Translations under genes and position numbers: made by a program
Notes under the pieces: generated by a model
What the model was told of the DNA's origin: nothing
Database searches by the model: none
The model's input: the letters and a program-made list of their open reading frames with translations, nothing else
Assembly (NCBI GenBank): GCA_046563655.1
Contig: CM102285.1
Location: 620,001-684,000 of the forward strand
Direction: 5' to 3'
Length of the DNA: 64,000 bases
From: Yuukianura sp. NJ FZ-2021
Taxonomy: Eukaryota
Shown here: positions 14,601 through 48,327 of the stretch, one piece after another
How positions within the stretch are numbered: position 1 is the stretch's first letter
Layout of the letters: each line of letters opens with the position of its first letter

Positions 14601-17600
14601 TTCATGCGTAAAATTCCACCAGGCTCAGAAGCATCCAATATTTTAGTAGGCGAAGTAGATTTCCTGGAGAAGCCTCTGTCCGCCTTCATTCGCCTTTCCC
14701 AGGCAGTGCTCCTGGGTGACCTCACAGAAGTTCCCGTTCCAACCAGATTCGTATTTATCCTCCTCGGACCCATGGTAAGTCATATCAAAATTTCAAAATT
14801 TCGAAAATCTAAATCCTCAACTTGTGAAATTTTGAATTTTGTAGGGTGGGATTAGCCGTTACCATGAAGTGGGTCGAGCCATGGCCACGCTCATGTCAGA
14901 CGAGGTCTTCCATGACGTTGCTTACAAAGCTAAAAACCGCGGTCACTTATTGGCTGGAGTGGACGAGTTCCTGGATGCTGTAACCGTTTTACCCCCCGGA
15001 GAGTGGGATCCCAGCATTCGTATCGAACCGCCCGCAGCCATTCCGTCACAGGTATGACTGTTCAAGTGTCGGTCCCAGAAACGGAACGGAACTTAATTCC
15101 GGTGTCGTTTCGTTTTCACATTTTTTTGGAAACGAATTCTTCCTCAAGGAAACGGTTCCATTATGCGATGGAACTGCAAGCGAAACGGAACCGGAACTGG
15201 ATGTATTTAATTTAGAACAAAGTTTGATAATTTAAATGCCGACAATGGGCAAAAGGTGTATTTAGAAATTTGTTTCTTGCTCCGTTCCGTTTCGTTTCCG
15301 TTTTCCAATTTTTAAACTAGTTCCGTTCCATTTTCAAAAAAAAATCTGTTCCAGTTCCGTTTCTGTTCCTCGTAGAAACGGAAGGGAACGTGAACAGCCC
15401 TACTCACTTGTTCCCGTTAAAATTCAAAATTCGAAAACTTTTTTCAAAAAATTTCTCACTTTTCGTGTCATCTTTGTTTCAGGATCCCCGAAAACGGCCG
15501 GATCAGCAGAAAGAGGAATGTAACGAAGAGGAGAACGAAGAGAAGCTTCGGGAGGAATCGGGATTAACCCGAACCGGACGACTGTTTGGCGGGTTAATGA
15601 ACGACATTCGGAGGAAAACACCGTGGTACTGGTCGGATTTTCGGGATGCTCTGTCGGTCCAGTGTGTTGCCAGTTGGATTTTCCTGTACTTTGCCTGCCT
15701 AACGCCCATCATTACCTTTGGAGGACTCCTGGGCAAGGAGACACATCAGTACATGGCTGCCATTGAGTCACTCGTGTCCGGTTTTGTCTGCGGAGTTGTA
15801 TATGGATTGTTCTCCGGTCAACCACTCACTATTCTCGGATCTACTGGGCCAGTACTCGTTTTCGAAAAAATTATGGTCGGATTCTGCGAGTAAGTGGAAA
15901 AAAAACTTATGAAAAGTTGAAAAACTTTGAAAAACTTGCAATTTTGAAGTTTCTGGATTTTCATAATTTTGACATTTTGAATTTTAGCGCTAACGAACTC
16001 AACTACTTGGAGTTTCGACTGTGGATTGGTTTATGGATTGGACTGATTTTGATTCTGCTGGTTGCATTTGACGCGAGTGCGTTTGTGTGTTACATTACGC
16101 GATTCACTGAAGAGAATTTTGCAACACTCATTGCATTCATCTTTATGTATGAGGTAAGCAACTTTTTTTTGAAAAACTTATTTATTTTTGGTTTTTGAAA
16201 ATATTTTTGAGAAATCGTATTTTCATAATACAAGTTTTTTTTAAGTAATTGAGTTAATGGTAGTCGTGATTTCTGGAAATTGGTTAGAAACAGGTTTTTA
16301 GAAGAATCGTGACACAATTGATTGCGTTGTTGTCGTACCGTGTCGACGTTAGACGGAATTTTGTAGTACCGGTTTGAAATTGGACGGAATTTTGTCGATT
16401 GTATGACTGTGTCGTACCGGTTTGAAGGTTTCGGTTTTTATTTGACCAAAACGTGAAACGGACTTCCGTCGATATCTACTCCCTGCATGGTGATGCGTAG
16501 GATGTACCGTCCGGGGCGGTCAACTCGGTACGATACGCCGATCGTTCCGTTCCCAAAGTTTTTGGTGTTGACCTCTGACTGACCTGGGCCTTCGATTGAC
16601 ACGTCCATATGCAGACACACGCTTCGCTCGTCGGCCGGATTCTCGATGAACAATTTGAAATTGTTTTGGGCTTCTGCGGATTCAAATGAAAATAAAAAAA
16701 TTTTTTTTCCATTTTTATCAAAATTGCGTATTTCCAAAAAAAAAATCTTTTTTTTTAAATTTTACTTGCGATGCCTTCCTTAAGGGCTCGTCCAGTTGCA
16801 GCGATCATTTTCTTAGGATATGCAGATTTTCAAACTAAAATATAGGAATTCAAAATTTGTAATTTGTTTTTTGAAATTTCTGGCCAAAATTTTGAAAGTT
16901 GAGTTCTGGACAGTCAAAGTCGTACTAACTCGTGATACTTGACATTGACAAGATTATATGTTGTGAGCAGAATAATAATTATGAAATGCCATGAATCAAA
17001 TTCAAAGATGAAAGCTCCCGCCTCTTCTCCTTGGGTTTCAAATAATGAATTATGGAGAAGATGGGCGTGGGAGTTCCAAAGTTAGTAGCAAACACGGTCC
17101 ATGCAAAACAATGCGAAATCTGAAGTTGAGAGCTGCAAAAAAAATGTTTGCAAAAAATTGATTTTGCTAATTTAAAACTTATAATCTTCTCTCCAGCATT
17201 TCCGCCTACACTTATAAAATCTAACTGCCTATTTTCTATTCCTAACTGCGTCGAACTTTTAGAACTTTTTTTTTATGATTTTGAACTTTTTTGATTTTGT
17301 GATTACTCCCGTCTCATCACGTTGGAAAGATAATGATGAAACTGAAATTTTAAACGCCTTCTGTCGGTCTCCTGTCCAATTAAAACAGTGACCTCGAACT
17401 TTTGACACAAAAGTGCTGACTAATAGACTAAATTTGACATGTTCTTGTACCTAGTAAAAAGACAGAGTTGCGGGGTGCCAAGGTGAGGAAATCCTCAAAA
17501 TCCAAGCCCTCACTCCTCAAATTCCAAAATTCAATTTCAAATTTGAACAATCATGTTTTCTATTGAACTGGATTCTTAACTATCCTTGGCAGATTTTTTC

Positions 17601-20600
17601 TGAAGTCTTTTGGATTTTTTTTTTTGCTTAAGGAAGACTAGATTTTGAGGACTTAAGTTTTTAGTACAGTTAGTTGGCTGTACTGAATTTAAAAAAAATT
17701 TTAAATTCAAAATTTAAGAAATTGATTTTCTGAGTATTTGTGGTAGTTTGAGATTTTAGGTTGAGGATTTTTGATTTTGAGTTCTTTTATATAGTATTTG
17801 AGGATTTCTTAACTTTGGATGAGTGTTGAGGATATCCTCTTTTAGATAGTGCCGATACCTATGACATAATTATATGACTTGAACAATGTTTGTTTTGTGT
17901 TGTAGGCTGTGAAGAACGTGTTGGGAATCCAGAAGAAATATCCAATGTACCCGGATCCAAGTACTCCTCAAAACCTCAACTGTTTCTGCATGGCAACGGA
18001 GAATACGACTGGATTCGGAGGCGGGAACTTTACTCTATTTGCACCAGAAGACAAGTTTTTAAGGACAGTCTCCTTCAGCCAATGTGTCAGCGTAAGGAGT
18101 CAATGACCTTGACCTCGTGACCTTGACCTTTGGGCAGAAAATGAGTCATGAAATTCCATTTGTTGATTTTTAGGTTTACAATGGAACTCTGGTTGGCGAG
18201 GGATGTAACCACTACCCCGACGTTTTCCTCATGTCGCTCCTCCTCTTTGTAGGAACTTTCCTCATCTCCGTTACTCTCAAGGACTTTAAGAACTCGGCAT
18301 TCTTCCCTACTAGTGTAAGCCTTGGAAATTTTATCAAGTTTTACAAAATTTTGAAAAATCATGATTTTGTTTTTGTTTTTCAGTTTCGTGGAATGATTAG
18401 TGATTTTGCGGTGATTATTGCCATTGTGAGCATGTCCTGTTTTGACCTATTCATGGGACTTGCTACTCCAAAATTGATCGGTGAGTTGGAGCTAACAAAG
18501 TTTAAAAAAAAAGTCGCACTTTTTTTTTTTAAAAGAATATTTTTTGAAACTTTTCAAATTTTTGAAATTTCAGTACCTGAAAAATTTGAGCCAACGAGGA
18601 AGGATGACCGTGGTTGGATAATTGACCCCTTCGGAAATAATCCGCCGTGGTCCATTTTTGCAGCGATTCTTCCAGCCCTCTTGGCAACTATCCTCATCTT
18701 CATGGATCAGCAAATCACTGCAGTCATTATTAACCGGAAGGAACATAAACTTAAGGCAAGTTAACTTAACTAATGTAATCTAGCATAAACTGACTTGATT
18801 AACCTCAAACTCAAAGTTAAGTTGAATTTGATTGTTTTTTGTGGGAATTTGCAGAAAGGCTGTGGCTATCACCTTGACTTGTTTGTGTTGGCTATTCTGG
18901 TCATGGCCTGTTCCATCCTGGGCATCCCTTGGTTCGTTGCTGCCACTGTTTTGTCCATGAATCACGTCAATTCTCTCAAAATGGAGTCGGAGTGCGCAGC
19001 TCCTGGAGAAAAACCACAGTTTCTGGGCGTGCGTGAACAAAGAGCAACGCACATCCTCATTTTCGTGCTCATCGGATTGTCCGTCACCCTAACCTCCGTT
19101 CTCAAACATATTCCAATGCCAGTACTGTTTGGTAAGTTTATGAGCATTTGATAGCATGTTATTATGTTTTACATAAATTATGTACGTACATGATTTTATG
19201 TAAAGGCATTACTTACATGATTACAGGAGTCTTCCTGTACATGGGTTTTGCATCTCTGAAGGGCATGCAATTCTTTGACCGTCTCCTCATCATGCTCATG
19301 CCCACAAAGTATCAGCCAGATTACATGTTTCTACGACAGGTACTACTTTTCAAAAAAAAAGTTTCAACTTTTTCGAAAAAACTTTTTTTGAAATCTGTTT
19401 TTTTTTTAACTTTTTATGACTTTGTATTAGGTACCGATTCTAAGAGTTCACCTTTTCACGATGATTCAACTGGCTTGTCTCGTCATGCTCTGGCTCATCA
19501 AATCGTTTCAAACTACCTCCATTCTCTTCCCTGTCATGGTCAGTTATCAATTTTCAAAATTTCAGAATTTTGTAAAGTTCGAGTTGAAATTTTTAGTTTT
19601 CCGAAATTTGTAGCTGGTCGTGATGATTGTGGTTCGAAAACTGCTGGACTACGTTTTTACGCAAAGGGAATTGAAGATTTTAGATGACATTATGCCAGAG
19701 GGCACCAAACGACGGGACGAGGAAGAGCGGATGATGAAAGAAGAAGAATTTGAAGTTGAGGTAACACATTTTCAAAAAAGAAAATTTTGAAATCGAAGTT
19801 CGTAATTTTACTGAATTTTTGAAACATGATAGGCCATCAAACGGTTTTCGGGTGACGGGGGAGAACCAGGGGTGAGTTGCGGTTTAGATTCAGCTCAGAC
19901 TGATTTTTTTTTTTCAAAATTTTGAAAATTCAGCACAGACTGACTTTTTTTTCAAAATTTCTAAATTTTTATAGAGGTTGGCAATTGGAGAATCGGGTAA
20001 CTTGCAGATTCCTTTGGCAAATGGCAATGTCATGAAGATTCCACTCAGTTCGGTCAACATAACTGAAGAAGTGAACAAAACTGGACTTTGGAAACAAGTT
20101 AACATGAACAATTCTAAAGAAGAGAAGTCACCTACAAAGGAAAAACTATCCATTGTAGACAAATTGTGAGTGAAATTTTGAAAAACTTGACATTTTTTGA
20201 TAAAATAGTTCCTGAATTTTGAAATTTTGGATTTTAGAAAAGACAAAGGAGCTAGAAAACGTGGAAGTAAGAAGGACGCTTTGAGTGACGAGGAGAGACG
20301 TCGTCTGTCGACTATGAACGAAGAAGAAGAGGAAGATGGAATCACCATCAAGGTACATCCAGCTACCTAAAAATCTCGTGTGCTCCCTTCCATCACTGTT
20401 TTTTGAATTTCAAATTTGAGTTTTCCCGCTCAACTTTTAATTTTCCCGCTCAAATTTGAGTTTTCCCGCTAATTGCATCTTCACTGGCTCTAATTTTATG
20501 TTCTCCAGGTTTTTTTTTGTATTCAGTTCTTACCCCTCCCCCAGAAACTTTGTTTTTGTGCTTCTTTTAACTTGATTTGTTATTACATTTTATTCAACTT

Positions 20601-22068
20601 TTAGTTTTATTATTATATTGTTTTATCATTATTATTATATTATTTAGGCTTTTTAGGCTTCTTTAATTTTCTGTGTTTCCGCCAACTTATTATATGTACT
20701 TCATCCCAGTACTTTTAGACATTTATAGTAATGTCACAGTTGTTTTTTTTTCTTCTGTTATTCTGTTATAGTACTTATAGTCTTCATGGTTTTAGACTTT
20801 AGTTTTAGACTTTACGGTTCTATAGTCAGTTTAATACAAGAGTGTGTTTGCACAGGAAACTACTTTAGGATTGTTAGGTTTCACTTTCAAGATTAGGTTG
20901 TAGAATACGTTTTTTTTAATGAGCCTGGAAAATTTTGGGTATTCATTTATGATTTTCTGCAGGAAACTTTTTTTTCAAAATTTTGTGGCTTTTTGGGAGC
21001 TAAAGCCACAAGTTTATTGGAGTCCATGAAATTAGAGCTATACGCCAGGAAATAGGGTAGTTTACTTTTTTTTTTTCCTTTAGGTTGTTTTCGTTTACCT
21101 AAACTTTTTGTGATGTAAAATGTACTTAAAGCTCCTATCAGTGAAATTAAAGTGTCAACATTAGTGTTATCCATCCATTTTCAAAATACAATTTCAAAAA
21201 TCAAGTTTTTGATTTCAGTTTCATTTTACTTGAAAGTATTTCCTGAGAATGAGCGCCGCACATGCGCATGAAACCTTTTTTTTACTTTTGTTTTTACAGA
21301 CACCAAAAACTGTCCAAATTTTCACCACCACGTTCAAAAACTATTAAACAATTAAAAAGAAATTTTCAAGTTCTTCGAAATTTCTCTTTCTCTCTATCTC
21401 TCTCTTTCTGTCATTTTTCGTTGCTTTCTGGTCTGTGAAAAATATATATTATTGAAATAATATATTAAAATAATATACTTTAAAATATAAAAAAATGAAG
21501 GAAATGTTATGTTAATGACTGCTTACTATGTTACAATCATCCCTTGTTACTTGATGTGTGTTGTGTAGGAGGATCATGCGCAGGAGAGCGGAAAAGTGAC
21601 GCAGTGAGCAAGAGTGACCCCGTAACGACAGCATTTTAAGGTAGTTGACCCTTGACCCACTTTTTATCAACCAATCAGATTACGATTTCAAAATGACGCT
21701 ACCAAAGTCAAAATTTTGAAAAAATTTTGAGAGCGACAGTTTATGGTGTCTTTGACATTTGACATGTTTTTGATTCATTTCCAGTCCTGTGAGGTTTAGA
21801 AGTTAACAAGAAAACTAAAGTGCGCATGAATGCTTTCGAAAGTTAGAAATTTAGTTTTGAAACGATTTTTCTAAAAGGGTTTTATATTTTGAGCAGTTTA
21901 CTAATAGAACCACTCCACCCAATTTTGATTTTGAGTTTCATTTTTTAGGTGACGGGATTCTTTGAATTTTTGAAAATTTGAAAACCGTTTGTGTCGTCCT
22001 TGTCTTTTCTCCTTTAGGTACTAGCTCCTGGCTACCGTTCCAAAAACAAGTCGGAGACTCCCGTGTAG
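5657..22068 (+). CDS. Ndae1: SLC4-family Na+-coupled bicarbonate transporter / Na+-driven anion exchanger (NDAE1, SLC4A7/8/10-like), multi-exon
   Basis: Spliced exons read by eye: 5647-5744, 5949-6095, 11869-12007, 12077-12435, 13135-13248, 13889-14022, 14589-14774, 14845-15051, 15483-15889, 15988-16153, 17906-18091, 18174-18314, 18384-18480, 18574-18755, 18855-19131, 19227-19339, 19431-19538, 19614-19760, 19833-19871, 19975-20165, 20238-20352, 22018-22068. SLC4 motifs: [105 protein letters not shown]. The true start and last exon are uncertain. Confidence 0.95.
5798..5879 (+). mobile_element. tRNA-derived short element (SINE-like or tRNA pseudogene) in an SLC4 intron
   Basis: A-box-like TAGCTTAGGGG, B-box GGTTCGAATCCC, then a T9 run. 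No intact acceptor stem is evident. A related copy lies at 58542-58625. Confidence 0.7.
14335..14430. repeat. 33-bp tandem repeat (~3 copies) within a TAATT-rich intron
   Basis: Unit gctggaattgtatttcgcaattgcaattacatg is repeated; the minus-strand ORF shows the matching period [11 protein letters not shown]. Confidence 0.85.
15054..15402. mobile_element. Degenerate MITE-like element with aacgg/ccgtt sub-repeats
   Basis: Left end tatgactgttca roughly inverts the right end tgaacagcccta. The interior is rich in gaacggaac / ttccgtt motifs in both orientations. Confidence 0.45.
16438..16808 (-). CDS. Single filamin (ABP280 Ig-like) repeat protein, 92 aa, nested antisense in an SLC4 intron
   Basis: Exon 1 16808-16766 ([14 protein letters not shown]), GT-AG intron, exon 2 16673-16438 ([12 protein letters not shown]...[54 protein letters not shown]). 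Matches filamin-repeat hallmarks (A-x-G-x-x-L, V-x-I-x-GP, G-T-x-x-V-x-Y, PG-x-Y, I-x-GSPF-x-V). Confidence 0.8.
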
Positions 22069-24665
22069 TCGGAAGTCAAAAATTTACTTCCCGCTTCGCC
22101 AAAATTCAAAAGTTTCAGAAAAAACTAAAGAGGTCAAAGGTCACACACTGCACTGCATTGGAGCAGGCTCCTGCACGCACTCTAGTCATTGCTAACGCCT
22201 AAACTTATGGAAGAAGCTGAAGCTGAGTGATGCGTCAAAGTTACGTCATACGTCATACGTCTGCGTCAGAAAACGTCAACGTCACATGGTCTTCTGTACC
22301 TGCGTCGTACTTTCTGTGGAGCCAGAACGCTGCAAACTCTTTTCCAACTCTAATCTTGTTCAGTACTTAATTGACAATAGAATTAAATTAGGAATTTAAA
22401 TATTTAGTTTTGCTGTTTAATGTTAATCAATTTTAACTCCGCCTCCAAAATTTCAAATTTGGTAGGAAAAACAAGCGTTGTCAAATCGGGCGAAGCTTTG
22501 TGAATTTTGACTCCTACTGACCTACGAAAAAAAAATTCTTTGAAGAAAAATGAAGTTTCAGCGCGGGAAATTTGAAAATTGAAGCTGGATTTCTGATCTC
22601 GGAAATTTTAGTGTGAAAGCCTAACGTTTGTTCCTGTTAAAAAATTGTTAACATTTAAATTTTAGCTTCAAAATTTCTGGCGTTAACTTTAAATTTGCAT
22701 TTACCGCGCTACTTTTCTGCGACTAAAAAGTTTAGTTTAAGATTATATGCTGACCTTAGCTTATTTATGTACAGAACAGACTGAACTGTTGACTCATGCG
22801 CAGAAGGGTAGCAAAATGTCTTAATTCATAGTTAAACTAATTAAACTAACCTTGATTCGATTAATTAGCAGTTAACTTTAAATTAAGTTAACTTTGATTA
22901 GGCTAATTAACTTTAAAGTTAGGCTAGGCTAAGTACAAAATTAATTTATTTTGGACGACTTGAGTAAGCAAGCTTTGCTTTTCGTTTTTGGTTTAAAAAG
23001 TACTATTTACTCCTTCTACTCCTCAGTGTATTTCCAAAAAATGTTGTACTTGTTCAAAATGTTCAAAATTTTGAACATTTGAATTTTGAACAAAAGTGTA
23101 AGTCCAAATTGTTGAACTAAAAACGAAGAAAGTCTCTACCTTACTCCATTTTGTTAAGTGGAGCGTAAAGGTCAAGGGGCGACACAGGCGAAATCGGGTT
23201 CACTTTGTAGTTGTACTAATTGTTGCTATTATGAGTAATGTGTAGTAAGGAATTAGGTCAAAAGGTCAAAATTTTGAAAAAGTCAAAAAGTCAAAATTTT
23301 GAAAAAGGCCGAAAAGTCAAAATTTTGAGAAAAAGTCGAAAAGGCAAGAAGACTAAAACTATGAGAAATTGTGTGATATAAGCCAATATGTCAAAATTCA
23401 AAAGTTTGTTTAAAAAGGTTTTAAATTTAAACTGGCCCGCCGCGCCCAGGGAAACTTCTTCGGCAAACAAAAAAGATGAAGGATGACTGAAATACAACAA
23501 TGTCTTCGGAAGAAAAAAATAGTTACAAATAAACGCGTCAACGTCTACGCATTAGACGTGAAATTAAAAAAAAAATCAGGTTTTTATAAAAATTTATGCA
23601 ATTTCAAAAATTTTGTCTTTTTTCCTTACAAAAGCTCAATTCCAAACGACAAAAAACTTACGCACTTTGAAAACTAAAATTTTTCGCTTTCTCTTTGTTT
23701 TTAAATAAGGAATCATTTTTCAGAGTTTAAGTCTAATTTTTTGGTCATTAGAGTTTAAAAACTGCAATTTTTTGAAGAAACGAAATGGAAACAGTTTGTG
23801 CACCAATTTTTACTGTTTTGAAAAAAAAAATTCCTGTTTGTCTCTTTTTGAAAACTGAAAAAGTTGAACCAGGGCTGAGTTGATAATGATTGTGAAAAAG
23901 ACGTCGTCGCAGATGTGACCTTTTTTTGGCACTCTACCCGAATTCGGGCATTTTCATCTTCCGCCTTGTTTCTGTACTTGTGCATAGGAAAAGCAATGCG
24001 GACGGATTTCCGTTGTGCCTCTCGCCTCGGCATTCCGAAAATGCATCCTCCCAAAACCAAAAAACTAAAAATGTACATTGTGGTTCAAAAGTTTGGTTCA
24101 AAAATTCAAAAGTCCCGAACACAACTTGCTACTTCTACAAAAATCTCAGATGGGGTAAGATGAGAAATCTTAAAAACCCGAAACTTTGTTATCTGAAACA
24201 GTGTTTTTTTTCCGCTTTCGTGAAACTTGTGAACCACGCTGTACTTTTTCGGGGATTTGTGTCCTGCCAAAGGGAAGAGTAATTGAGCTTTTCTTTCTTG
24301 TGCTGTTGAAGCGCGAGACTGAGAATTTGGCAATAGGCCATCTCCATCTGTACAGTTTTTGGGTGTGGAAAAAAAGAAGAAGGTGATGGCCCTAGACCCC
24401 GCGACTCCATCGATTTTACTCTCCCGGGAACGTGGACCTGCGCCACTTCGCTCAAATCCCAAAAACAACTTTCTCCTGCCGCCGCTCTTCACGGAGAGGT
24501 TCCCTCCCAAAGAAAATCGGACCAACTTCTCCAGAATGGACTCCGCTCTGACTCGCCTAATAAGTCATTACCACCCTTCCACCACATTCGGACTCCATGT
24601 GAACTTGTAACTCCAAAGTTCAGTGACCTCTGACCCTGAAAGTTCTGTGACCTCTGACCCCAAAC

Positions 24666-27600
24666 ATGTCAGCAACACAAGTCTTCGTGTTCCTGCTACT
24701 CATCCAACTCTCCACATCTGACCTCCCAGACAGGGGGATTTCTCGACAGCAGTAAGTTCAGAAAAATTTATTTGACTTGGAGGGAGTAACTATGTTCATC
24801 TAACATCATTTGACTTGGAGGGAGTAACTATGTTGACGCAATTTGATTTCACTGGGAAGGAGTAACTATGCTCATCTAACGTGATTTGACTTGGAGGGAG
24901 TAACTATGTTGACGCAATTTGATTTGACTTGGAGGGAGTAACTATGTTGACGCAATTTGATTTGACTCGGAAGGAGTAACTATCTTAGCATAACTTGGTT
25001 TGACTGGAGGGAGTAACTATTTTAGCTTGTTTTGACCCAAGGTTTTGACATCCAAATTGAACTTTCTTTAACACGTCAGGTAACAACTAAAGTTTTCGAA
25101 AATCAAAAAAAAAATTCTACCTTTTTTGTTTTTTTTTCTCAGTTTCTACTTCGAATTTGTCAGTTCATAAGCCCTTCTCTCTGAATTTTTTAATTTTATT
25201 ATTTTAATTTCAAGAAGAAGTATATTTTTGTTTACCAACCTTGGACTAACCATTTTGACTTAAGGGAGTAACTATTTTAGTTCGAATTGTTTTTACTTTG
25301 TAATTATTAATTATCTGAGTCTAACTTGTTCTACGTTAGTTATTGATGTAATCGATAAGCCTAACCACAGTGTAATCTGATCATAACTTTTTTTCACACC
25401 TAGGTTGGAGAACTGGGCCTCTAAGTTTGGTGGTCCACTGGCCGAGTTTGCCCGTTCTGTGACCAAGTACAATGAACTACATTTGGTAAGCAGTTTTCTA
25501 TATCTTACAGTAGTGCGGAAAATTTTAAAAAACAAGACAATTCAAAAAAAAAAAGTTGAAGATTTTTGAAACATATTTTTTTAACTTGTTCTACACAGAG
25601 ATTTCAGCAAAGTCGAGATTCCGACGTGACTCGTCTCAATCCCCAAACTATTCTGGAGTCCATAAAATCCAATATCGAGGAGCATTTCAAGGAACGCACG
25701 GCAGCACTTTATGTAAACCAAAACCAATTTCTAAAAAATTCACTTTTGAAAAAATTTTGTATTTTGAATTTTTTTTAAATGTTTAGAAATTGCAAGTGGC
25801 TATTGAAGAAAGGGCGTTGAGCTACAATTCAAAAGGCGGAAACAACGTTCCGATTCCCGCTGAAATCTTGAACTACTTTTCAGCCAAACGAATTAACAAG
25901 CCTCCTTTAGAAGAAGAAGAAGACGATCCATGGCCATATCGCACTCAACTGGACATGCGCAACTCATCTCACTTCAACGCACCAGTCAACTTCACTTCTT
26001 CTACAGTCCATGTCCCAACGTCAATCTACGAAAGAGGTCAGAGATCACATTTTTCAGAAAGAAAATGAATTTTTCAAAATTCTCAAAATTTCCTGCTCTT
26101 TTTCAGGAAAAAACGTTATCCAAGGAATCGAGTGGTCTGCCGAACTAGATGAAATTTTTATCTCCAACTTAAAAGATCATCCTACTCTAAACTGGCAGTA
26201 CTTTGGGTCTGCCACTGGCTTTCTCCGCCAGTATCCAGGAATGGAGTGGAAGAAGGACAACAGAGAAACAGGACAGGCAGACTTGTTCGACGCACGCATG
26301 CGTCCTTGGTACACGGCGGCTGCAAACAGCCCAAAGAACATCGTCATACTCCAAGATGTGAGTGGGTCAATGACCGGAAGACGCAGGGAGATTGCGCGAC
26401 ATGTCGTTTATACAATTCTGGACACACTCACGGACAACGACTATGTCAATGTCTTCAATTTCTCGAATAATACGACTCCGATTGTTCCTTGCTTCCATAA
26501 CAAGCTCGTTGAGGTAAGAGGTCATTGACATTTACTCATACTTGACATTTGATATTAATAAATCAACATAATTTTGGCATTGCAGGCGAGTTTGGAAAAT
26601 ATTCGAGAATTTAAAGTGGCCTTAGATCAAGATACGACGCACCAAATGGCGAATCAGTAAGCACGACATTTGCTAAGCAGCAATTTCCTCAACAACATTT
26701 GCCAAATAGGAATTTCCTCGACGACATTTTCTAGACGTCAATTGCTTTACGAAAAAACAGTTGAACAGTGTGGCTTTCTTCAAAACCAAAAAAAAATTGC
26801 AGGAATTGTAAAAGTTTTTGTAAAATGTTTTAATTTATACCTTTTGAATTTCAGTGAACACGCGCTACAAACTGCCTTTGAATTGCTGAACTCTGTAAGT
26901 TTTTTTTTAATAAAAATTTCGAAATTGTGCTCCCTAAACTTGAAATTTTGAAATTTTTGAAAATTTAATTCCAACTGTTTAGAAGTTGAATGACACGGAC
27001 AGTTCTGGTTGCAATCAAGCGATTATGCTAATCACTGATGGTTCTCCGTATTACTACGAAACGTTGATTGGAAATTTGCAAAACCGCGAACATCCTGTAC
27101 GGATTTTTACGTACCTCATCGGAAAAGAAGTCACGGATTTTAGAGAAGTACGGTGGATGGCTTGTAACAACAATGGTACGACAAATTTTGGAAAAAAAAA
27201 ATGACAGAATTTTGAAATTTTGAAATTGATTTTTCGAATTTTGAAATTTCAGGTTACTTTGTACATGTTTCTACATTGGGCGAAGTGCAAGAACAAGTTT
27301 TGAAATATCTGCCTATCATGTCTCGACCAATGGTAATTGTTGGGAAGCATGACGTCACGTGGACTCCCGTTTATGCCAACTTTGTTGTAAGTTTTTTCAA
27401 AATTTCGAACAATTTTTCAAAAAATGAGTTACAAATTCTTAGTTTTTAGCAAAAGTTTTTTTGTTTTGTCTTTAGAAAAGTTGTCTCTATAACCTTGTCT
27501 TTTATTTAGAAAATTATTGGATTTTTGAGAGCCTCTTTTAATGTAGGAAGTGACGAGTCCAACTCGCTCCTTTTGGTTAATCAGACGTAGTTTGGATGAG

Positions 27601-30600
27601 ACTAAGGTAGATGCATAGTTTGACAACTGCGCAACACCGTTTTCAAAAAAATGGACACGAAGTTTGAAATTTTGAATTTGAGTGTTTGGATAATTTTGCC
27701 GCCTAAAAGTAAAATTTGAACTGGCCGAGTCGTTTCTTACACAAAATTGCTACAACCAAACACTTTTTAAGTTTCCTTTCCTGTGTTTACTGCTTGCGGC
27801 TTCCTGATTGGTGGAACCAGGAAATGGTGGAATCTGATTGGGCCTGGGCTGCTGCCATTGGAGCTGAACAGCGAATTCGCTCTAAACAATTTCGGCTGAT
27901 CAACTCCTTTCCAAATCGGTCGCTAGCTCTGTCTCAACTGGACTTGGCTGCTGTGAGCTCTTTATGGTTTCCAATTGGTTCAAATTTTTGTTGTCCACTG
28001 CGCATGCGTCATTCGGCTTGGCTTTAGAGTTTTGGTTTTTTACAACACTCAAAAGTAGCATGATCTTTTTATGTTTTTTGGTATAAAATGACACGTTTTA
28101 ACCAACTATTGTGCAAACTTGAAAAGTGATGGAAAGTTTTCAAATTTTGGGTTTTTTTTTTCTTAAGGTTCCTCCACACCGAACGGCGCCGATGAGCAAC
28201 GATTTTGAATTTGTCGTGTCCGTGGCCTTGCCAGTTTTTGATTTGAGAAACACAACAATTACTGAGGATGGAAAGAAGGTAAGCATGAAGGTTTGTAAGC
28301 AAAAAGAAAATTTTTTACATATCAGGTTGTCCAATAACTCGAAGTTTTAACTAATTTTAACTAGCAAATCTGCCTTTCTATGGTAATTTTGCCTTGCAAT
28401 CTAAATGGGATTGGTGCTAAATTGGTGCTAAAAGTTGTTTGAAGCAAGATTTTTGAAAAACCTGAGTTATTGGACAACCTGTTGTAGGAAATACAATCCG
28501 ATTGCCAAGGAACCTTGGTAAGCATGCTTATAGTAAATTTCTACTGTACATGAGTGGATCATGTTTTCACGGCGCTTGCATACTGCTGGCAGCTTTTTGT
28601 AAACTTTTGAGTTGCAACATATCATTTTATGTTTAATTTTTAGAGTAATAGGAGTTCGGGAGCAAAAGACATTAAGGTATTTACACATTCGCTTTTTCGT
28701 GTGCGAACTAGGCTTTAGTTGTTTGCAAAAATAAGCTTCTGCAAAAAAAAAATATTTTGCACACATGTTTGCAAAATTTCGAGTTTTAAAATTTATTTGT
28801 TTGAACTGTACAGGAGCGAATTGCAAATTTTCTGGGCGTTGTGGGTACGGATGTACCGCTGAAAGAACTAAAACGACTCACGACGCCGTTCAAATTGGGT
28901 GTAAACGGCTACGCCTTCATTGTGACCAACAATGGGCATGTCGTGCTTCATCCCAATTGGAGACCAGCTATTAGATCAACAGTAAGTAGCTCAACTGCAA
29001 TTTGATCAACACAACAACTGTGTAACGAAACATTGTTGAACTGTTGATTTATGTCGTTCACAGCATGGTGACATTTTGAAACCGAATTACAACAGCGTTG
29101 ATTTGCTCGAACTGGAATTGGTCGATAGCAACGGAACGTATAGAAACAACGACTCCATGCTGCTTCAGGTAAAGATTACAATCGGTAATCAAATAAATGG
29201 CGTTTTATTTTTTATTTTTTTTTGAAATTTTTAATTTTTGAACGTTTTCGCGTAACCAAAACTTATTTTCCCAAAAGTCCTACTGTACAAAGTTAGAAGG
29301 TGTGATGGAGTTTTTAAAAATCAATATTTTGGAATTTTTTAAATTTCCATAAATAAGGAAAATGCACTTTAGTGAATTTGTTAGCCCAATCCTGTATTTT
29401 CCAAATGTCCTTCTGTGAAAAGTTGGAAGGTGTGATGGAGTTTTAAAAATCAATATTTTGGAATTTTTTAAATTTATATAAAAAAAAAGAAAATGCTTTT
29501 TAGTGAATTAGTTAGCCTAATCCTGCATTTTCCAAATGTCCTACTGTACAAAGTTAGAAGGTGTGATGGAGTTTTTAAAAATCAATATTTTGGAATTTTT
29601 TAAATTTCCATAAATAAGGAAAATGCACTTTAGTGAATTTGTTAGCCCAATCCTGTATTTTCCAAATGTCCTTCTGTGAAAAGTTGGAAGGTGTGATGGA
29701 GTTTTAAAAATCAATATTTTGGAATTTTTTAAATTTATATAAAAAAAAAAGAAAATGCTTTTTAGTGAATTAGTTAGCCTAATCCTGCATTTTCCAAAAG
29801 TCCTACTGTAGAAAGTTAGAAAGTTGGCGTGTGATATTATTTTCAAAAAAACATTATTTTTGAATTCTTTATTTTCTCATAAATAATGAAAACATATTGA
29901 AGTGATTTTCTCAGTCAAATCGTAACTTTTCCGAATGTCCTTCTGTGGAAAGTTAGAAGGTGTGATGGTGTTTTGAAAAATCAATATTTTGGAATTTTTT
30001 AAATTTCCATAAATAAGGAAAATGCACTTTAGTGAATTTGTTAGCCCAATCCTGTATTTTCCAAATGTCCTTCTGTGAAAAGTTGGAAGGTGTGATGGAG
30101 TTTTAAAAATCAATATTTTGGAATTTTTTAAATTTATATAAAAAAAGGAAAATGCTTTTTAGTGAATTAATTAGCCTAATCCTGCATTTTCCAAATGTCC
30201 TTCTGTGGAAAGTGAGAAGGTGTGATGTAGTTTTTAAAAATCAATATTTTGGAATTTTTTAAATTTCCATAAATAAGGAAAATGCACTTTAGTGAATTTG
30301 TTAGCCTAATCCTATATTTTCAAAAAGTCCTTCTGTGAAAAGTTAGAAGGTGTGATGGTGTTTTAAAAAAAACAATATTTTTGAATTTTTTAATTTGACA
30401 TAAATTAGGAAAATGAGGTTATGTCACAGTCTACCTCGGTCCAAATTTTCAGAATTTTTCTAACTTTCAAAATTTTTAACTCTTCACCACTCACCAACCA
30501 TTTGTATGCTAACGTACCATAACAAACTTAACAATTTATGTTCAACACTTTTTCTATCAACAGATGCGACACGAAATCGTGATGCGTGACAAGAGTTTCA

Positions 30601-33600
30601 GGAATCTCCGTCTGCGCATCCCACAACAAGATTTTGTAAGTTTCTTGCCATTATAAAACAAAGTTTTATGATAACACGCAACTCAAAAATTGCTTCTGTG
30701 CATACATTGCTAAACTTTGGTGATGTTTTAACTAAAATTGCTAAAATTTGAACAGAAACGTGTGACAATTCGAAACCAGGCGTTTGAATTCGAGGGAATC
30801 AACGAGACACCGTACACTCTGGGCATCTCTGTCCCCGAGAGAGCGAATTGGTTCCACGGTCAGATCGAAGTTATGCGGATCGGGAAGGACGAGGGGATCA
30901 ATGTCCTTCAGTACTTGGATCCAGTGTCACCTCCTGATTCTGGAGGAGGAGGAGGCGGAGGAGGAGGAGGCGGAGGAGGGAGGAGGTGGGCCATCAACCC
31001 CAACTGGCAGTACTGCCACTACATCCGGAGTGGGAGTGACAGGGGGTTCACCAGCATGGAGGAGCAGCTCATTCACTTCCTCCGGGAGATTCAGCAGAGT
31101 TCGTCAAATTGGAAATGGAAAAATACAGGCGTCGGCATCAACAAGAACGTTCGGCATTCCAACAAACGCCATCTTGAAGAAGACATCTATGAATGTACAG
31201 TACAAACAAAAATTTCAGAGAAATAATTTTCAAAAACAATTTTTCCATGAAAATTTAACTTTTTAGATTTTTGAAGACTAATTTTGAAATGCAATATTTC
31301 AGGCGATAAGGATCTGGTCCAATCTCTAATTTTTGACGCCAATGTTACCGACGTATTCACATCCTCCTCCAAAATTTGGAAAATTAACAAAAACGAATCG
31401 TAAGTGAAACATTTAAGAATATATTTATATTTTAAAAATGAAAAGAAAAACTGATATTTTGAAATGTATCTAACTAATCTATGACTCAAAATTTATGATT
31501 TGAAACAAAAAAATTTCTAAAATTGCACTTTTCTCCCGCTCTTTTTCTTGTTGCAAAATTAATTTTTACCGAAAGGTCGCTTGCATTACTGTTTGCACTG
31601 ATGCCAAGGTAAACTTCACATCTTCATGCACAAGCACTTTCAAAAATCTTACTTTTTAAATTGTCCAAAATGGAAACCAATTTTTAAAACGATTTCTTCT
31701 GACACCTTCTTATGCACCATTTTACTGCTCACTCACTCTGGAACCTTGGGATTTCTACTTGTTTTTGAAACTGAAATTTCAATGTTGTGAAATTTGAAAC
31801 TGAAATTTTGAAATGTTATATCTCTAATGCTCTTGTTTTCAAAATTTTTGTTCCAAATTTGTAGCCGAATTATTGAGATGTATGGAGCCCTCATGGCCTT
31901 CATTGCCACTCGAAGTGGACTCACTCGCTGGATAGAATTTTCCGGCTCAAGTCATCAAGGAAAGTAAGCAAACATAGTAAATTTACTTAAACGTAAACTA
32001 TTATCAACGTAAATTTTTTTATCATCATCGTAAATTTACATAAACTTATATGAACAAAAGTAGGCGTAAATTTAATTTACACCTACTAATTTCCATTTCC
32101 TAACGTAATTTTTATAATTTTCAGCGGGAACAATCACCGACCTGCAGGTCCAGCAGTTGATCCGAGTGCCACAGATTCGCTATGGTACCAGAGAGCTGTT
32201 GACCGTTATGAAGTTGACCCGAATTCCTTCGTGTACTCAGTGCCCATCAACTCCGGAGTGAACCCTAATACCCGGGTAACAGCCACCAGAGCCATCTTCG
32301 TCACCAAGCATGGGCGCAAGGCTCCAGTGGCAGTCGTCGGCATAGAATTTGACCACCAGAAGTGGTCCAAGTTTTTTCTTGACATTACCGGCACGGTAAG
32401 TAACTACAACATTCAAAAATGGCGCCAACTTTTAAAATTGGCGGGCTTTTTTTACGAATAGTGTATGGAAGGACGGGATTGTAAGAAGACTTGTGAACGT
32501 GCCGAATTCGATTGTTACGTTTTGGATGATAATGGGTACATACTCATTACGACTAGAAGGCCAGAAGATACTGGTGAGCTGTTGTACCACATGTACACTT
32601 TGAAATTTTCAAAATTTTGAAAAATTTCAATCTTCAATTTTTTTTTTGTACAGGGAAGTTTTTTGGGGAAGTGGATGGTATGGTCCTGGAAATGCTGGTG
32701 AACGCAGACGTGTACAAGCGCGTACGTGTTTACGATTTCCAAGATGCCTGTCCCCAAGTCCTCTCGCTAACGAGCCCGGCCAACTATCTCCTCACAGTAA
32801 TTTTAAGAAAATTTCAAAATTTCTAAAAAAAACAAATTTTTATTTTTTTGAAAAATTGTATTTCTCATTCCAGCCCCTCTATCACCTCAAGTGGTTCTTT
32901 TCATGGTTGCTTTCACATTTTGTCTACCTGGCAGTCAATTGGGCAACAATTGGTGCAGAGGGTAAGAAACGTCATTGATCTTTAAGAGGTCATTGACCTT
33001 TGACCTTTGCAGTTCACTTTACAGTATGTTTTGTGTAGTTTTAGAAGACATAGAGTTGAATCCACCAATGAAAGACTACCTAACAATCAACAAAACAAAG
33101 TTGAATCCGTGTGACAAGGAGTATGACCTCTTCACCTACGGCGCAGCCTACAACAGTCACAGTTTTTTCTATAGTGGCATCCTCAACAAATGTGGACACA
33201 ACTGTGACGGGTAAAGTTATGGAAAAAGTTAAGGTCAAAGGTCACTTGAGGTCATGAACTCATTTTGTGTCTAGGTACTTCAATGTCCACTACATCCCAC
33301 ATACGAATCTAATCCTAGTCGTGACCGACGGTAGATGTCAGTGCGGTCACAACGCAACAGTCATTGCTCCACGTATTGTGCCCTACCAAAACGCTGTCAA
33401 CGCCACAGAAGACCTGTGTCGAATACCCAGAGTCCCACTGGCCAGGAGGAAACCCGATGTTTGCTATCCTTCTAACCCAGAGGTAAGCAAGGTTCCTATA
33501 GCAACGAAATAGTTTTCCTTTAACAGGTTTGGCAATAAGTACTCTCTACGGAAAATACCGTCCCGAACAATTTTTTCCGCCAATTTCCCGCCAATCCCAT

Positions 33601-37185: not shown

Positions 37186-38995
37186 ATGAAGTTCTTTGTC
37201 TACCTATTATTGTTGGAAATAGCGTTGAAGTGGGCATCGGCCGTTGGGTTTGGGAGTAAAGTAGACGCAGGAATTGAGCAGGCGCTGAAGATCAAGAGCA
37301 CTGTCCACATTGTGGTGTCCTTTGAAGAGACGAATGGGGTACTTTCTACTCTTGCGCAGAAGCAAAAGAACGAACACGGTTTGGCCGCAACGCAGGTACT
37401 TTTAAAAATAAGACTACATGGTTTTAATCATCTTTTACACACTTAACTTTATTCAACCATCGCTTAAATAGAAACTGCAAGGGTGTGCTCTAGGCTAGAA
37501 TTCCTGACCTTTCAAATAATCTTTTGCCTACTCTCAATTTTTCTGATGCTGTGTGTTTTTTTTTTTCCAACAGGTACACCAGACTCTGATGTCCCACGCC
37601 AAGAGGTCACAGGCAGCCGTTCTTTCTCTGCTCACGTCTGGCAACTGGACTTCGTTCAAGGTCAAGTCCTTGTGGATTTCAAACCAACTTTACATTGAGG
37701 CTGCCGATTTTGATCTCATCGATCTGCTCTCAAATATGGATGAAGTGAAGGAAATCCATGAAGAATTAGTGGTTCCGTTGGACTATCCCATCGCAAGTGC
37801 AGGTTCTGAAGATTGGAAGGTGGGTGACGCCGTGTGGGGCATTGAGAGAATCAAAGCAAAGGAGGCTTGGGCTATTGCTGGTACTGGAGAAGGGGTGACC
37901 GTGGGAATCATTGACACTGGCGTCATGTTCAGTCATGCAGCTATCAGAGACAGTTACGGTGGTGACGAGTACTCTTGGTATGATCCGTATTCTAGGAGTC
38001 AAGACCCCTTTGACCCCGTGGGACATGGAACTCACGTCACTGGAACAATTGCTGGAGGGTACGTTGGAATGGAAGCTCCAGGGATAAGCGAACGATAGCC
38101 AATCATTTACTTTAATTTGAGTAGGTTTGGGATTGGTGTTGCTCCTGGAGTAAAGTGGATTGCATGCAGAGGGCTCAGCGAAGACGGTGGACGGGAGTCG
38201 AAATTAATTGAGTGCGGTCAATTCATGCTGTGTCCACACACATACGATGGAGCCGGAGAAGACTGTTCGAAGGCTCCACAAGTAGTGAGGTTGGGAAAAT
38301 TAACAATTTATCTTCCAAAAAAATACAAATTTGTTAAATATTGTGGAATAAATGTTATTTCACATGGAAAAAAGTATCTTCCGCATGTAACGTTAAGTAC
38401 ATCTGACCAATCTCTTTTCAATTCCAGCAACTCTTGGGGAAGACCGATTGGAGGGCAAACCTACTACGACGCCGTGATACGCGCATGGCGTACAGCAAAT
38501 ATTATTCCCATCTTTGCAGCTGGGAACGCCGGTCCGAAATGTGCAAGTATCGGGTCTCCTGCAGATTCTTCAGCTGGAGTAATCGCCGTCGCAGCCACGA
38601 CTCCAGAGGATGGAATTGCGCCTTTTAGTTCCAGAGGACCATCACATTGGGAAGGTCAACATAAACCGGACATCGCTGCTCCTGGACTCAATGTTCTCTC
38701 CGCGGGAATTCAACATGATGACTCTTACGTGGTTAAATCTGGGACGTCAATGGCTTGTCCACATGTGACTGGAGTAGTGGCCCTGCTCAAGTCCATTTGT
38801 GGTGAATCCTTGTATTACGAATTTATCCAGGAAATTTTAGCTGTCACTGCGGCACAGAACCTAACGTTTAGTTTAACCGACCCTGATTGTAGTGGTTTCG
38901 GTCAGAAAGAACACGAATTCCCTGACTATTTGTTTGGTCACGGACGGATCGATGCTTGGAAGGCCGTCCTTGAGGCATCTAAACGCTGTGCATAA
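37186..38995 (+). CDS. Secreted S8 subtilisin-family serine protease, bacillopeptidase-F-like
   Basis: Exons 37186-37395, 37574-38058, 38125-38289, 38428-38995. Signal peptide, propeptide (KSLWISNQLYI), catalytic Asp (IIDTGV), His (GHGTHVTG), oxyanion Asn (AAGNAG) and Ser (SGTSMACPHV); GIGVAPGVKWIACRG and NSWG motifs. Confidence 0.9.
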
Positions 38996-43593: not shown

Positions 43594-43713
43594 AAGCCAA
43601 GAGCACCCGGGGTTCCCAGGCGGTCACCCATCCAAGTACTAACCGGGCCCGACGTTGCTTAACTTCAGTGATCGGACGAGAACTGGTGCTTTCAACGTGG
43701 TATGGACCTTGGC
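43594..43713 (-). rRNA. 5S ribosomal RNA
   Basis: Minus strand GCCAAGGTCCATACCACGTTGAAAGCACCAGTTCTCGTCCGATCACTGAAGTTAAGCAACGTCGGGCCCGGTTAGTACTTGGATGGGTGACCGCCTGGGAACCCCGGGTGCTCTTGGCTT, 120 nt with complementary termini and a downstream T-run terminator. Confidence 0.97.
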
Positions 43714-44042
43714 GGAAGAGTAGGGGAAATAACACAGAGATGAAACAACCAATTCAATCAAACTGCTAAATCTATTAACTTTCTTGCAAGTCTTTTACAA
43801 TTTACAAAACACCTTTGTACTATTACCTACAAATCTCGTTCTCTCTAACGCTATACTAAATTCAATTAAAGCAACTGCAATTAACCCAAATTAAAAAGTG
43901 GACTCTACAACTCCACACACCGAACCGGTTGGAACTCCCGACTCTAATTTAAAGAAGACTTTACTCGAAAATCAACATCTTTCCCTTCCCATCTCTTTAC
44001 AGACTTTTTTTAAACGTTTTTTTGCTCTTTGTAGATTGTGGT

Positions 44043-44058
44043 GGCCCTTAAAAGGGCC
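44043..44058 (-). terminator. Histone mRNA 3' stem-loop (H2B)
   Basis: GGCCCTTTTAAGGGCC followed by ACCAC and a purine-rich AAAGAG downstream element. Confidence 0.95.
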
Positions 44059-44096
44059 GTTGGTTTAAGTGGACTCTGGTGTGGTGATGTTGAGTT

Positions 44097-44471
44097 TTAC
44101 TTGGAAGAAGTGTACTTGGTCACAGCCTTCGTCCCTTCAGACACTGCGTGTTTAGCCAGTTCTCCGGGCAGCAGGAGTCGCACAGCAGTTTGAATTTCGC
44201 GGGATGTGATGGTGGTGCGCTTGTTGTAGTGCGACAGTCGTGAGGCCTCTGCTGCAATCCTTTCGAAGATGTCGTTGACGAAAGAGTTCATGATGGACAT
44301 GGCTTTGGAGGAGACGCCAGTGTCTGGATGGACTTGCTTGAGGACCTTGTAGATGTAGATGGCGTAGGACTCCTTCCGCTTCATCTTCTTCTTCTTCTTG
44401 TCGCCCTTCGAGATGTTCTTCTGCGCCTTCCCTGCCTTCTTCGCCGCTTTTCCGCTCACCTTTGGTGGCAT
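44097..44471 (-). CDS. His2B: Histone H2B (replication-dependent)
   Basis: [17 protein letters not shown]...[20 protein letters not shown]...KYTSSK; intronless; upstream TATA; 3' stem-loop. Confidence 0.98.
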
Positions 44472-45289
44472 CTTGACTTGGTTTTCGGTTGTCGAGAGAG
44501 AGAGAATCAAGAAACTTTGTGGAGTGAATGAGAGGGTTCTGTTGTGTCTCCCTTTTTATATGAAGCCGAGAGGAGTAGAATTCGAGATGATTTTACTCTT
44601 TTGGAGTTGGGGGGTGGTGAAATGGATGGGGTGGCAATGGACAAAATGCATGGAGGGACCACCCCAACTCCACCAAACCCCCGTGCCAAAAAAACACAAA
44701 AAAAATCAAAAGAGCTTCGTCATCGGCGTCTGATTTGTCCCCCTCTTTCTCCAAATTCAAATGCTTCTCCATCTCCCTTCTTCCCGGATGAAGCGTAAAA
44801 TTCCCAAAAACTTTTGAAAAAACACTTCGAAAAACGAAAGAGCAGAAAATGATGCCTATCTAAAGCTAAAAATTAAAAACAGAGCTTTTTATTATGGGTG
44901 ATTGATGACAATGTAGAATGAACATTTTAAAATTCCGTAAATGAGTTGACATAAGTTTAAAAATTTCGGTGGGAAACCAAGTTCAGAGTTCATGATTTCC
45001 TTTTGAATTTGATTGAGGTCATCAGAGTGTATGGTTCAAATTCAATTCATATTTTGAGTGGAGGTCAAAGTTTTATTTATTTTGTCATTGAGAATTTGCG
45101 ACTGAACTGAATTCGAATTGCGTAAAATGAAAAATTGAACTCTCGAAGAAGCAATAAATTTTTTTTTTAAATTGGAAGGTGAATCGTATGCTATTCTGGT
45201 TGTGGTTAGTTTTTGCTCTTTGTAAATTTTGGTGGCCCTTAAAAGGGCCGTTGGTCATAAATAAAAGTAGAGTTGATTTGTGTAGATTT

Positions 45290-45670
<381 letters not shown>

Positions 45671-46415
45671 TTATTCAAAAAGTAGAGAGAGTTCCTGACT
45701 TGTCAAAAAATGAGAGTGGAATGACTAACATCCTGCGTCGAGCTTGGTATTTATAGGGTAGGCAGAGGAGTAAGATTTCACTGTGTTTTACTCTTTTGGA
45801 GTTTCACGAAAGGGGAATTTTGGGAAGGAGGAGCGACAAAAAATAGCAGCTGCGGGAAATTCAAACTTTCAAACTTCTGGTGCGGACCGAAAGGCAAAAT
45901 AAAGAAGACGACGACGGGAACAAAACGAAAGAAAAACTGAATGACGTTAATTATGTTCAACTTTTAATCATGATTAAACTAAATACTAATTAAACTGCGT
46001 TTTTATCATCGTCTCGTCACTTCTGCACTGACACAGTTGCCTTTTTGCTGTTAAAACAACCCACACCTTTCGAAACAAACTGAATTCTTCCTAGATTTCA
46101 AAAATTCCTTTGATTTTCTTTAACTGAATATCAATTAAATAACTTTTAACGTCATTTTGCACATCATTTCTTGTAATTCATTTTACTTCATTGAACTGTA
46201 ACTTAAAACTAGCAAAACCACATCGTAGTTAGTTCAAGATTTTGAAATTAACAGACAAAAATTAAATTGGACAACAGAACTTCAATGCAAACGTCAAGTA
46301 AAAATGAAATGTCGAACTAAATTCTACGAACATATTGATTTTTGCTCTTTGTAGATTGTGGTGGCCCTTAAAAGGGCCGTTGGTTGGATGTTGATGTTGG
46401 AGAGGACTTTGATGT

Positions 46416-46823
<408 letters not shown>

Positions 46824-47898: not shown

Positions 47899-48327
<429 letters not shown>

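Follow-up and report, generated by a model that had tools for sequence, protein, structure and literature searches.

Evidence for a protein made of one filamin repeat, encoded antisense within an intron of an SLC4-type transporter gene

Introduction

Filamin repeats are usually strung like beads in long arrays and mechanosensing scaffolds, or accompany other domains in multidomain proteins (filamins, TRIM-NHL proteins, POGLUT2/3). Whether one such repeat can make up an entire protein is the question raised by a locus of Yuukianura sp. NJ FZ-2021 (GenBank assembly GCA_046563655.1, contig CM102285.1, forward-strand positions 620,001 to 684,000). Within this stretch of 64,000 nucleotides (nt), referred to below as the window and numbered from its first letter, a two-exon open reading frame (ORF) of 92 amino acids (aa) had been predicted on the minus strand, antisense in an intron of a bicarbonate-transporter gene. 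The present analysis indicates with high probability that the 92-residue product is a cytosolic protein comprising one complete filamin-type immunoglobulin (Ig) repeat and nothing else, encoded by a single-copy gene that would be transcribed independently from its own promoter. This estimate refers to the gene and its identity and not to its mechanism, and the transcription is deduced from conserved motifs.

Gene model

Strand reading and translation confirmed the minus-strand gene in every described element, with two exons specifying 92 aa. The elements and the enclosing intron are listed here:

16766..16808, minus strand: coding exon 1, with the ATG at 16808-16806; 43 nt, i.e. 14 codons and 1 base; encodes strand A of the Ig fold
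16674..16765, minus strand: intron of 92 nt, GTAAAA...CCGCAG (GT..AG), phase 1
16438..16673, minus strand: coding exon 2 and stop; coding part 16673-16441 (233 nt, 77 aa), TAA at 16440-16438; encodes strands B-G of the filamin repeat
16830..16832, minus strand: in-frame TGA, eight codons 5' of the ATG
16154..17905, plus strand: host SLC4 intron of 1752 nt, phase 0, enclosing the whole nested gene

The TAA directly follows ...GSPFHVLVK in the window protein, and both this stop and the upstream TGA were found where the original prediction had placed them. The intron interrupts codon 15, between strand A (residues 2-5) and strand B (residues 16-24), and keeps the frame, so that the claim that it parts the first strand from the rest also held. 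GC content was 0.535 in exon 1, 0.185 in the intron and 0.515 in exon 2, as against 0.348 in the surrounding host intron. The window product has a molecular mass of about 10.1 kDa and a pI of 7.9, and is without a hydrophobic N-terminus. The 92-aa protein P0085, an unnamed protein of Orchesella dallaii, mapped by tblastn to these two exons only, as one copy in the 64-kb window; its residues 1-14 aligned to 16808-16767 with 79% identity and its residues 13-92 to 16680-16441.

Domain assignment and predicted fold

The product of exon 2 (P0001, 77 aa) matched the Pfam family Filamin (PF00630) with 40.5 bits and an E-value of 5.1e-10, over profile positions 25-93 of 93, where the cut-off is 26.9 bits. 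The Pfam test was made on exon 2 alone, and exon 1, which supplies the missing first quarter of the profile, was judged by its identity to residues 1-14 of P0085. This full-length orthologue scored 51.9 bits over profile positions 8-93 of 93. In both P0001 and P0085 the filamin repeat was the sole Pfam domain.

AlphaFold2, given an alignment of 11 family sequences, predicted a beta-sandwich both for the window exon 2 (pLDDT 87.6, pTM 0.69) and for P0085 (pLDDT 86.5, pTM 0.75). When the two models were compared with the PDB by Foldseek, all matches listed were filamin-type domains, with TMq values of 0.62-0.85. The Dictyostelium rod scored 0.84-0.85, FLNA21 and FLNA17 each 0.81-0.82 (0.80-0.82 for the window exon 2 with FLNA21/FLNA17), FLNB16-17 0.81 and the dimerisation repeat 24 0.74-0.79, with the filamin domains of LIN-41, TRIM3 and TRIM45 lower in the ranking. 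As modelled, the protein is an Ig-like sandwich of about seven strands that can be superposed on solved filamin repeats. The claim of a single filamin repeat of 92 aa, split over two minus-strand exons, was in this way borne out by coordinates, profile match and predicted structure.

Orthologues, conservation and selection

Exon 2, used as query in a word-indexed search, retrieved five metagenomic proteins of 56-85 aa with 64-82% identity, and a metagenome scan yielded three loci (L001, L002 and L003). L001 and L002 each comprise 92 codons with a GT..AG phase-1 intron at the same codon (69 nt and 64 nt), end at the same stop position and carry in-frame stops upstream of the ATG, as in the window. 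L003, which begins 91 nt before exon 2, has its acceptor (tttcag) in that phase as well and ends at the corresponding stop. Intron position and phase are therefore kept in all three loci that include exon 1, and the position of the stop codon is shared by four of four.

Selection was assessed by Nei-Gojobori counts on the spliced coding sequences (CDS) of the window, L001 and L002, expressed as the ratio of non-synonymous to synonymous change (dN/dS):

window and L002: pN 0.135, pS 0.684, dN/dS 0.081
L001 and L002: pN 0.090, pS 0.595, dN/dS 0.081
window and L001: pN 0.123, pS 0.833, dS saturated

For exon 2 alone, dS could be estimated in two of six pairs, which gave dN/dS values of 0.080 and 0.060; the other four were saturated. 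Exon 1 alone showed the same bias (pN 0.08-0.16, pS 0.44-0.69). Fisher tests of synonymous versus non-synonymous change gave p <= 2e-16. Nucleotide identity between the window and L001 was 72% in the nested CDS and 69-79% in the host exons. By these measures the nested gene is under purifying selection and is not a decaying fragment, since dN/dS is 0.06-0.08 and synonymous sites are near or at saturation.

A family profile was built from the 11 family sequences and scored against the domains of all proteins collected, including 148 long proteins among the top 150 representatives of the search described below. Family members scored 109-161 bits, and the best single repeat among the 148 long filamin-type proteins reached 56.9 bits, a gap that should be read as somewhat inflated, since the profile was built from its own members. 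All such matches cover about positions 22-76 of the profile only; the N-terminal third (QNNFKLF.ENP..E..VCLH) is specific to the family. Judged by this comparison, the nested gene is not a recent copy of a filamin repeat.

With the exon-2 alignment as query, an exhaustive HMMER search of cluster representatives produced 2167 matches at E <= 1e-3. Among the best 150 of these 2167, two short proteins were found, a 56-aa fragment and P0085, which matched end to end; single-domain relatives scoring about 57-115 bits would fall outside the best 150 by whole-protein score. Two further orthologues carry database names, 'Filamin-A' for P0156 of Orchesella cincta (92 aa) and 'filamin-A' for P0157 of Folsomia candida (96 aa). 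Compared with the window protein, 60 of 92 residues are identical in O. dallaii and O. cincta and 54 of 96 in F. candida; the annotated orthologues begin at the same methionine or four residues before it. The gene model is thus present independently in three annotated springtail genomes, and the expectation that annotation pipelines would easily miss such a gene was not borne out. The sequences point, with good confidence as to gene and identity, to an old and distinct orthologous family annotated in springtails (Collembola). Judged by these orthologues, the window itself most likely derives from a springtail or a near relative; a nematode origin, at first suggested by short AT-rich introns and a ttttag ahead of the ATG, was rejected on that ground. 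On the same comparison the automatic label 'filamin-A' on springtail proteins of 92-96 aa is a misnomer, as these are not filamins. Two sequence groups could be told apart, one (HMDVS...SYRV) comprising the window, L001, L002, P0002-P0004 and P0006, and the other (HLDV...NYRV) comprising the Orchesella and Folsomia proteins, L003/P0005, P0158 and P0159.

No description of the family was found in the literature searched for filamin in springtails, Folsomia candida or Orchesella, or for stand-alone filamin repeats. In the ESM Atlas, Filamin was the sole Pfam family in 17 of the 30 clusters listed. Three filamin-only clusters shown comprised proteins of about 100 aa, the commonest known phylum being Mollusca, Arthropoda and Nematoda, respectively; a further cluster of about 100 aa, commonest in Chordata, was auto-named 'Fragment'. 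These clusters from other phyla may represent fragments or true stand-alone proteins, which tempers the claim of an unusual architecture.

Host gene and nesting

All eight exon-bearing plus-strand ORFs tested between 11862 and 19684 matched Pfam Band_3_cyto or HCO3_cotransp; on these matches, the host is an SLC4-type anion/bicarbonate transporter gene on the plus strand. The upstream host exon ends in ...FIFMYE at 16153 and is followed by gtaagc, and the next host exon starts at 17906 after ttgtag, so that the nested gene lies antisense and fully within the host intron. Collinear host exons flank the nested gene on both sides in L001 and L002, where it occupies the same SLC4 intron in the same antisense orientation. 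The antisense nesting in a bicarbonate-transporter intron was accordingly confirmed. Among the checks that had been suggested for the locus, a Pfam scan, structure prediction, dN/dS and the nesting in L001 and L002 agreed with the gene as predicted. The locus is a clean example of antisense nesting, in which position, intron and promoter-like block have been kept while synonymous sites became saturated.

A conserved block at 16925-17077 might have been a host exon or a coding exon upstream of the ORF; both readings were rejected, since the host exons join without a gap across 16153 and 17906 and the minus-strand ORF at 16979-17269 gave no Pfam match.

Downstream of the SLC4 coding exons, six collinear blocks of 28-62 nt, 85-100% identical, were observed between window positions 21291-24443 and L001 positions 347-2988, two of them with CATGCGCAG. 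No consistent open frame, Rfam match or convincing hairpin was found in them; they may be conserved regulatory or untranslated region (UTR) elements.

Putative transcription signals

Three candidate elements were located around the ORF:

16924..16959, minus strand: putative core promoter, with ATATAA at 16959-16954, TGTCAATGTCAA at 16950-16939 and an initiator-like TTAGT at 16928-16924
17067..17077, minus strand: conserved motif GGAACnCCCAC, also at about 6213-6223 in L001 and 690-700 in L002, invariant except at n
16181..16186, minus strand: candidate poly(A) signal AATAAA, 251 nt after the stop and about 28 nt before the antisense host exon

In the window, L001 and L002, a TATA-like hexamer (ATATAA or ATAAAT) begins at a constant 33 nt upstream of the A of TTAGT, a spacing that fits a TATA box with the arthropod-type initiator consensus. 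The 12-mer TGTCAATGTCAA is the sole exact word of at least 11 nt that all three host introns share; the window, L001 and L002 each contain it once. Transcription is predicted to start near 16926, with 5' UTRs of 118, 93 and 50 nt in the window, L001 and L002, respectively. The motif GGAACnCCCAC lies about 110 nt further upstream than the promoter-like block, and in the interval from this motif to the TATA-like box, L001 and L002 have a GGGGCG(G/T)GA-like element, represented by GAGGCGGGAG in the window. L001 and L002 likewise have an AATAAA ahead of the host exon, 141 and 64 nt after the stop, respectively. Independent transcription of the nested gene is suggested, because a rigid block of TATA-like hexamer, TGTCAATGTCAA and TTAGT stands upstream in all three nested loci.

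Alternative gene models

The ORF might instead be part of a larger gene with extra coding exons up- or downstream. The window does contain an AG between the TGA and the ATG (cctaag/aaaATG) that could in principle serve as an acceptor, but in-frame stops precede the ATG in the window, L001 and L002, and in L002 the stretch between stop and ATG is free of AG dinucleotides, so that no acceptor there could add coding sequence. Downstream, the common stop in four of four loci argues against extension, as do the three orthologues of 92, 92 and 96 aa with their shared start region and the TATA/initiator-like block and AATAAA that flank the ORF. A search for longer proteins carrying exon 2 gave nine candidates, none significant, which is weak evidence in the same direction. 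We regard a larger gene as very improbable, and the claim of a stand-alone protein without further plausible upstream coding exons stands. Still less can be said for the view that the ORF arose by chance or is a filamin repeat in decay, as a duplicated fragment or pseudogene. The many similar repeats in filamin genes could seed fragments, but against such an origin stand the low dN/dS with synonymous sites near or at saturation, a frame that is intact and equally long in three diverged loci, family scores that exceed the best repeat of the 148 long filamin-type proteins by more than 50 bits, and a Pfam E-value of 5e-10. On sequence grounds this explanation is effectively refuted and has next to no probability. 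The original argument that the gene is not a retrocopy was upheld as well, because intron position and phase are conserved in three of three loci and dN/dS is 0.06-0.08.

Binding edge and possible mode of action

Excerpts of PMC7714767 assign filamin repeats 4, 9, 12, 17, 19, 21 and 23 to subgroup A, with a common partner-binding mode on the C-D face. Among single-repeat PDB chains, P0085 scored best with FLNB9 (40.6 bits), FLNB17 (36.8), FLNC17 (36.8), FLNB12 (36.6), FLNB19 (36.4) and FLNA17 (35.9), and all six (repeats 9, 17, 17, 12, 19 and 17) fall in subgroup A as given there; FLNA19, scored as a domain, reached 39-40 bits. The window exon 2 matched FLNB9 (36.1 bits) and FLNB12 (34.6 bits), followed by several repeats at about 27-28 bits, including FLNA repeat 3 (26.8), which is outside subgroup A. 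In these scores the preference for subgroup A repeats is real, but weaker for the window protein.

The excerpts of PMC7714767 further name FLNA residue 2272 in strand C as a diverged critical interface residue. In excerpts of Lad et al. 2007 (PMC1948075), L2271-A2272 lie in strand C of the binding face, and specificity is ascribed chiefly to hydrophobic side chains of strand D, at positions 2283 and 2285. In the HMMER alignment, strand D of the family reads I/V-x-T, as in FLNa19 (I-N-T), with one hydrophobic residue kept. This alignment makes it plausible that the family has a peptide-binding edge with the usual geometry, and the binding specificity of the family is probably its own.

Our tentative and rather doubtful proposal is that the protein is a monovalent peptide-binding module using its C-D edge. 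The single repeat would capture a beta-strand motif of a partner along the edge of strands C and D, as ligand-binding filamin repeats do, and an invariant aspartate in strand C would give the module its own specificity. Without an actin-binding domain and further repeats, it would cap, mask or compete for such motifs and would not cross-link.

Several observations weigh against a stand-alone module of this kind. Strand C carries the aspartate in 11 of 11 family sequences (D23 of P0001, D38 of P0085), aligned in HMMER to Ala2272 of FLNa21 (the A in L-A-I-A-V) and to a serine of FLNa19; a small residue (Ala, Ser or Thr) is thus absent from the FLNA-2272 equivalent of the family, and with the aspartate there, the binding of canonical ligands may be altered or lost. 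Both models place a helix between strands B and C (residues 27-36 of P0085, 12-21 of P0001), and we know of no such helix in canonical filamin repeats. Motif conservation is the one kind of evidence that points to the promoter, the poly(A) signal and the transcription start. In L003 no host exon was found in 1969 nt downstream of the stop, with just 91 nt of upstream flank, so that the SLC4 nesting may be limited to one lineage. A ligand set distinct from that of filamins would be at least as likely as the originally proposed competition for filamin ligands, because the invariant aspartate sits where ligand-binding repeats have Ala or Ser. For an A2272D/A2274K mutant, said to abolish integrin binding, no printed source was found, and it was not used as evidence.

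It is quite possible, if short of probable, that the gene is real and the protein works otherwise, by edge-strand pairing with another filamin-type domain like repeat 24, or through an interaction or metal site formed by the helix and a Cys-x-His-x-Asp motif. Dimerisation repeats are structurally almost as close to the models as ligand-binding ones (3cnk, TMq 0.79; 1v05, TMq 0.74-0.76), C34, H36 and D38 (P0085 numbering) are invariant or near-invariant, specific to the family and located in or next to the predicted extra helix, and the aspartate at the FLNA-2272 equivalent itself speaks against canonical ligands. By sequence, however, repeat 24 chains rank low for P0085, with 20.7 bits for 3cnk and 26.6 bits for 1v05 against 36-41 bits for repeats 9, 12, 17 and 19. 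Complex prediction with two copies of P0085 gave scores of 0.12 and 0.12 against a mark of 0.32, with controls absent.

A more specific extension of the peptide-binding module, which we consider improbable, would be an undescribed 'mini-filamin' class: a soluble one-domain repeat whose own specificity is set by the aspartate and the helix, and which caps the filamin-binding tails of membrane proteins or masks filamin repeats. Springtails would have retained it over a very long period, enclosed in an ion-transporter gene, and it may either share in the transcription of that gene or oppose it.

Comparison with filamins and related proteins

The nested gene resembles FLNA repeats 17, 19 and 21 (2bp3, 2j3s, 2k7q, 2brq, 9lwx) in Pfam family and Ig sandwich (TMq 0.76-0.83), in the I-x-T of strand D (FLNa19) and in the hydrophobic L/M-x-V-x-I pattern of strand C. 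It differs from these ligand-binding repeats in the invariant aspartate in place of Ala or Ser (2272) and in the predicted B-C helix, and from ordinary repeats in its own N-terminal third, the likeness being confined to profile positions 22-76. Whereas a repeat of a vertebrate filamin is a bead of a 24-repeat rod, here it is the whole protein, without actin-binding domain, hinge or dimerisation repeat. An N-terminal tandem calponin-homology actin-binding domain, as filamins have, does not occur in this ORF of 92 codons, with stops upstream in three of three loci; nor does a tandem-repeat rod with a dimerising end, since there is one repeat and a stop after the last strand in four of four loci. 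The 'Filamin-A'/'filamin-A' entries of O. cincta and F. candida and the O. dallaii protein are orthologues, with 54-60 identical residues, similar length and the same end.

TRIM-NHL proteins (LIN-41, 4umg and 6fq3; TRIM3, 7o0b; TRIM45, 2ds4) likewise have one filamin-type domain per protein (TMq 0.67-0.82), but theirs is flanked by a coiled coil on one side and NHL repeats on the other. Their chains stood at ranks 33-48 in the Foldseek matches listed and were not found among the 46 and 39 PDB chains listed by sequence. The Dictyostelium gelation factor ABP-120 (1wlh, 1qfh, 1ksr) has the same fold, with TMq up to 0.85, but there six repeats form a rod, the last of them dimerising, and an actin-binding domain is present.

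A conserved one-repeat protein would be a natural minimal filamin module, a tool-sized domain for studies of C-D-face recognition and possibly an endogenous regulator of filamin-type interactions. Its significance is limited in that the family has so far been met only in springtail-like genomes and that orthologues are already in databases.

Other features of the window

On the minus strand, a 5S rRNA gene at 43595-43713 (109 bits) adjoins five histone 3' stem-loops (44018, 45210, 46338, 47827 and 49057), and the region 43595-49102 resembles a cluster of histone genes linked to a 5S gene. Two long plus-strand ORFs at 37547-38995 contain what we take, from the ORF listing, to be subtilisin-like motifs (GHGTHVTGTIAG and SGTSMACPHVTG). 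Also in the ORF listing, plus-strand ORFs at 25911-33512 resemble a protein of the von Willebrand A/calcium-channel alpha2-delta type (DVSGSMTG...), and a run of 13 glycines occurs in the ORF at 30732-31226. Three consecutive minus-strand ORFs at 29280-30158 share a nearly identical peptide (..FKTPSHLPTFHRRTFGKYRIGLTNSLKCIFLIYGNLKNSKILIF..), which indicates a tandem DNA repeat.

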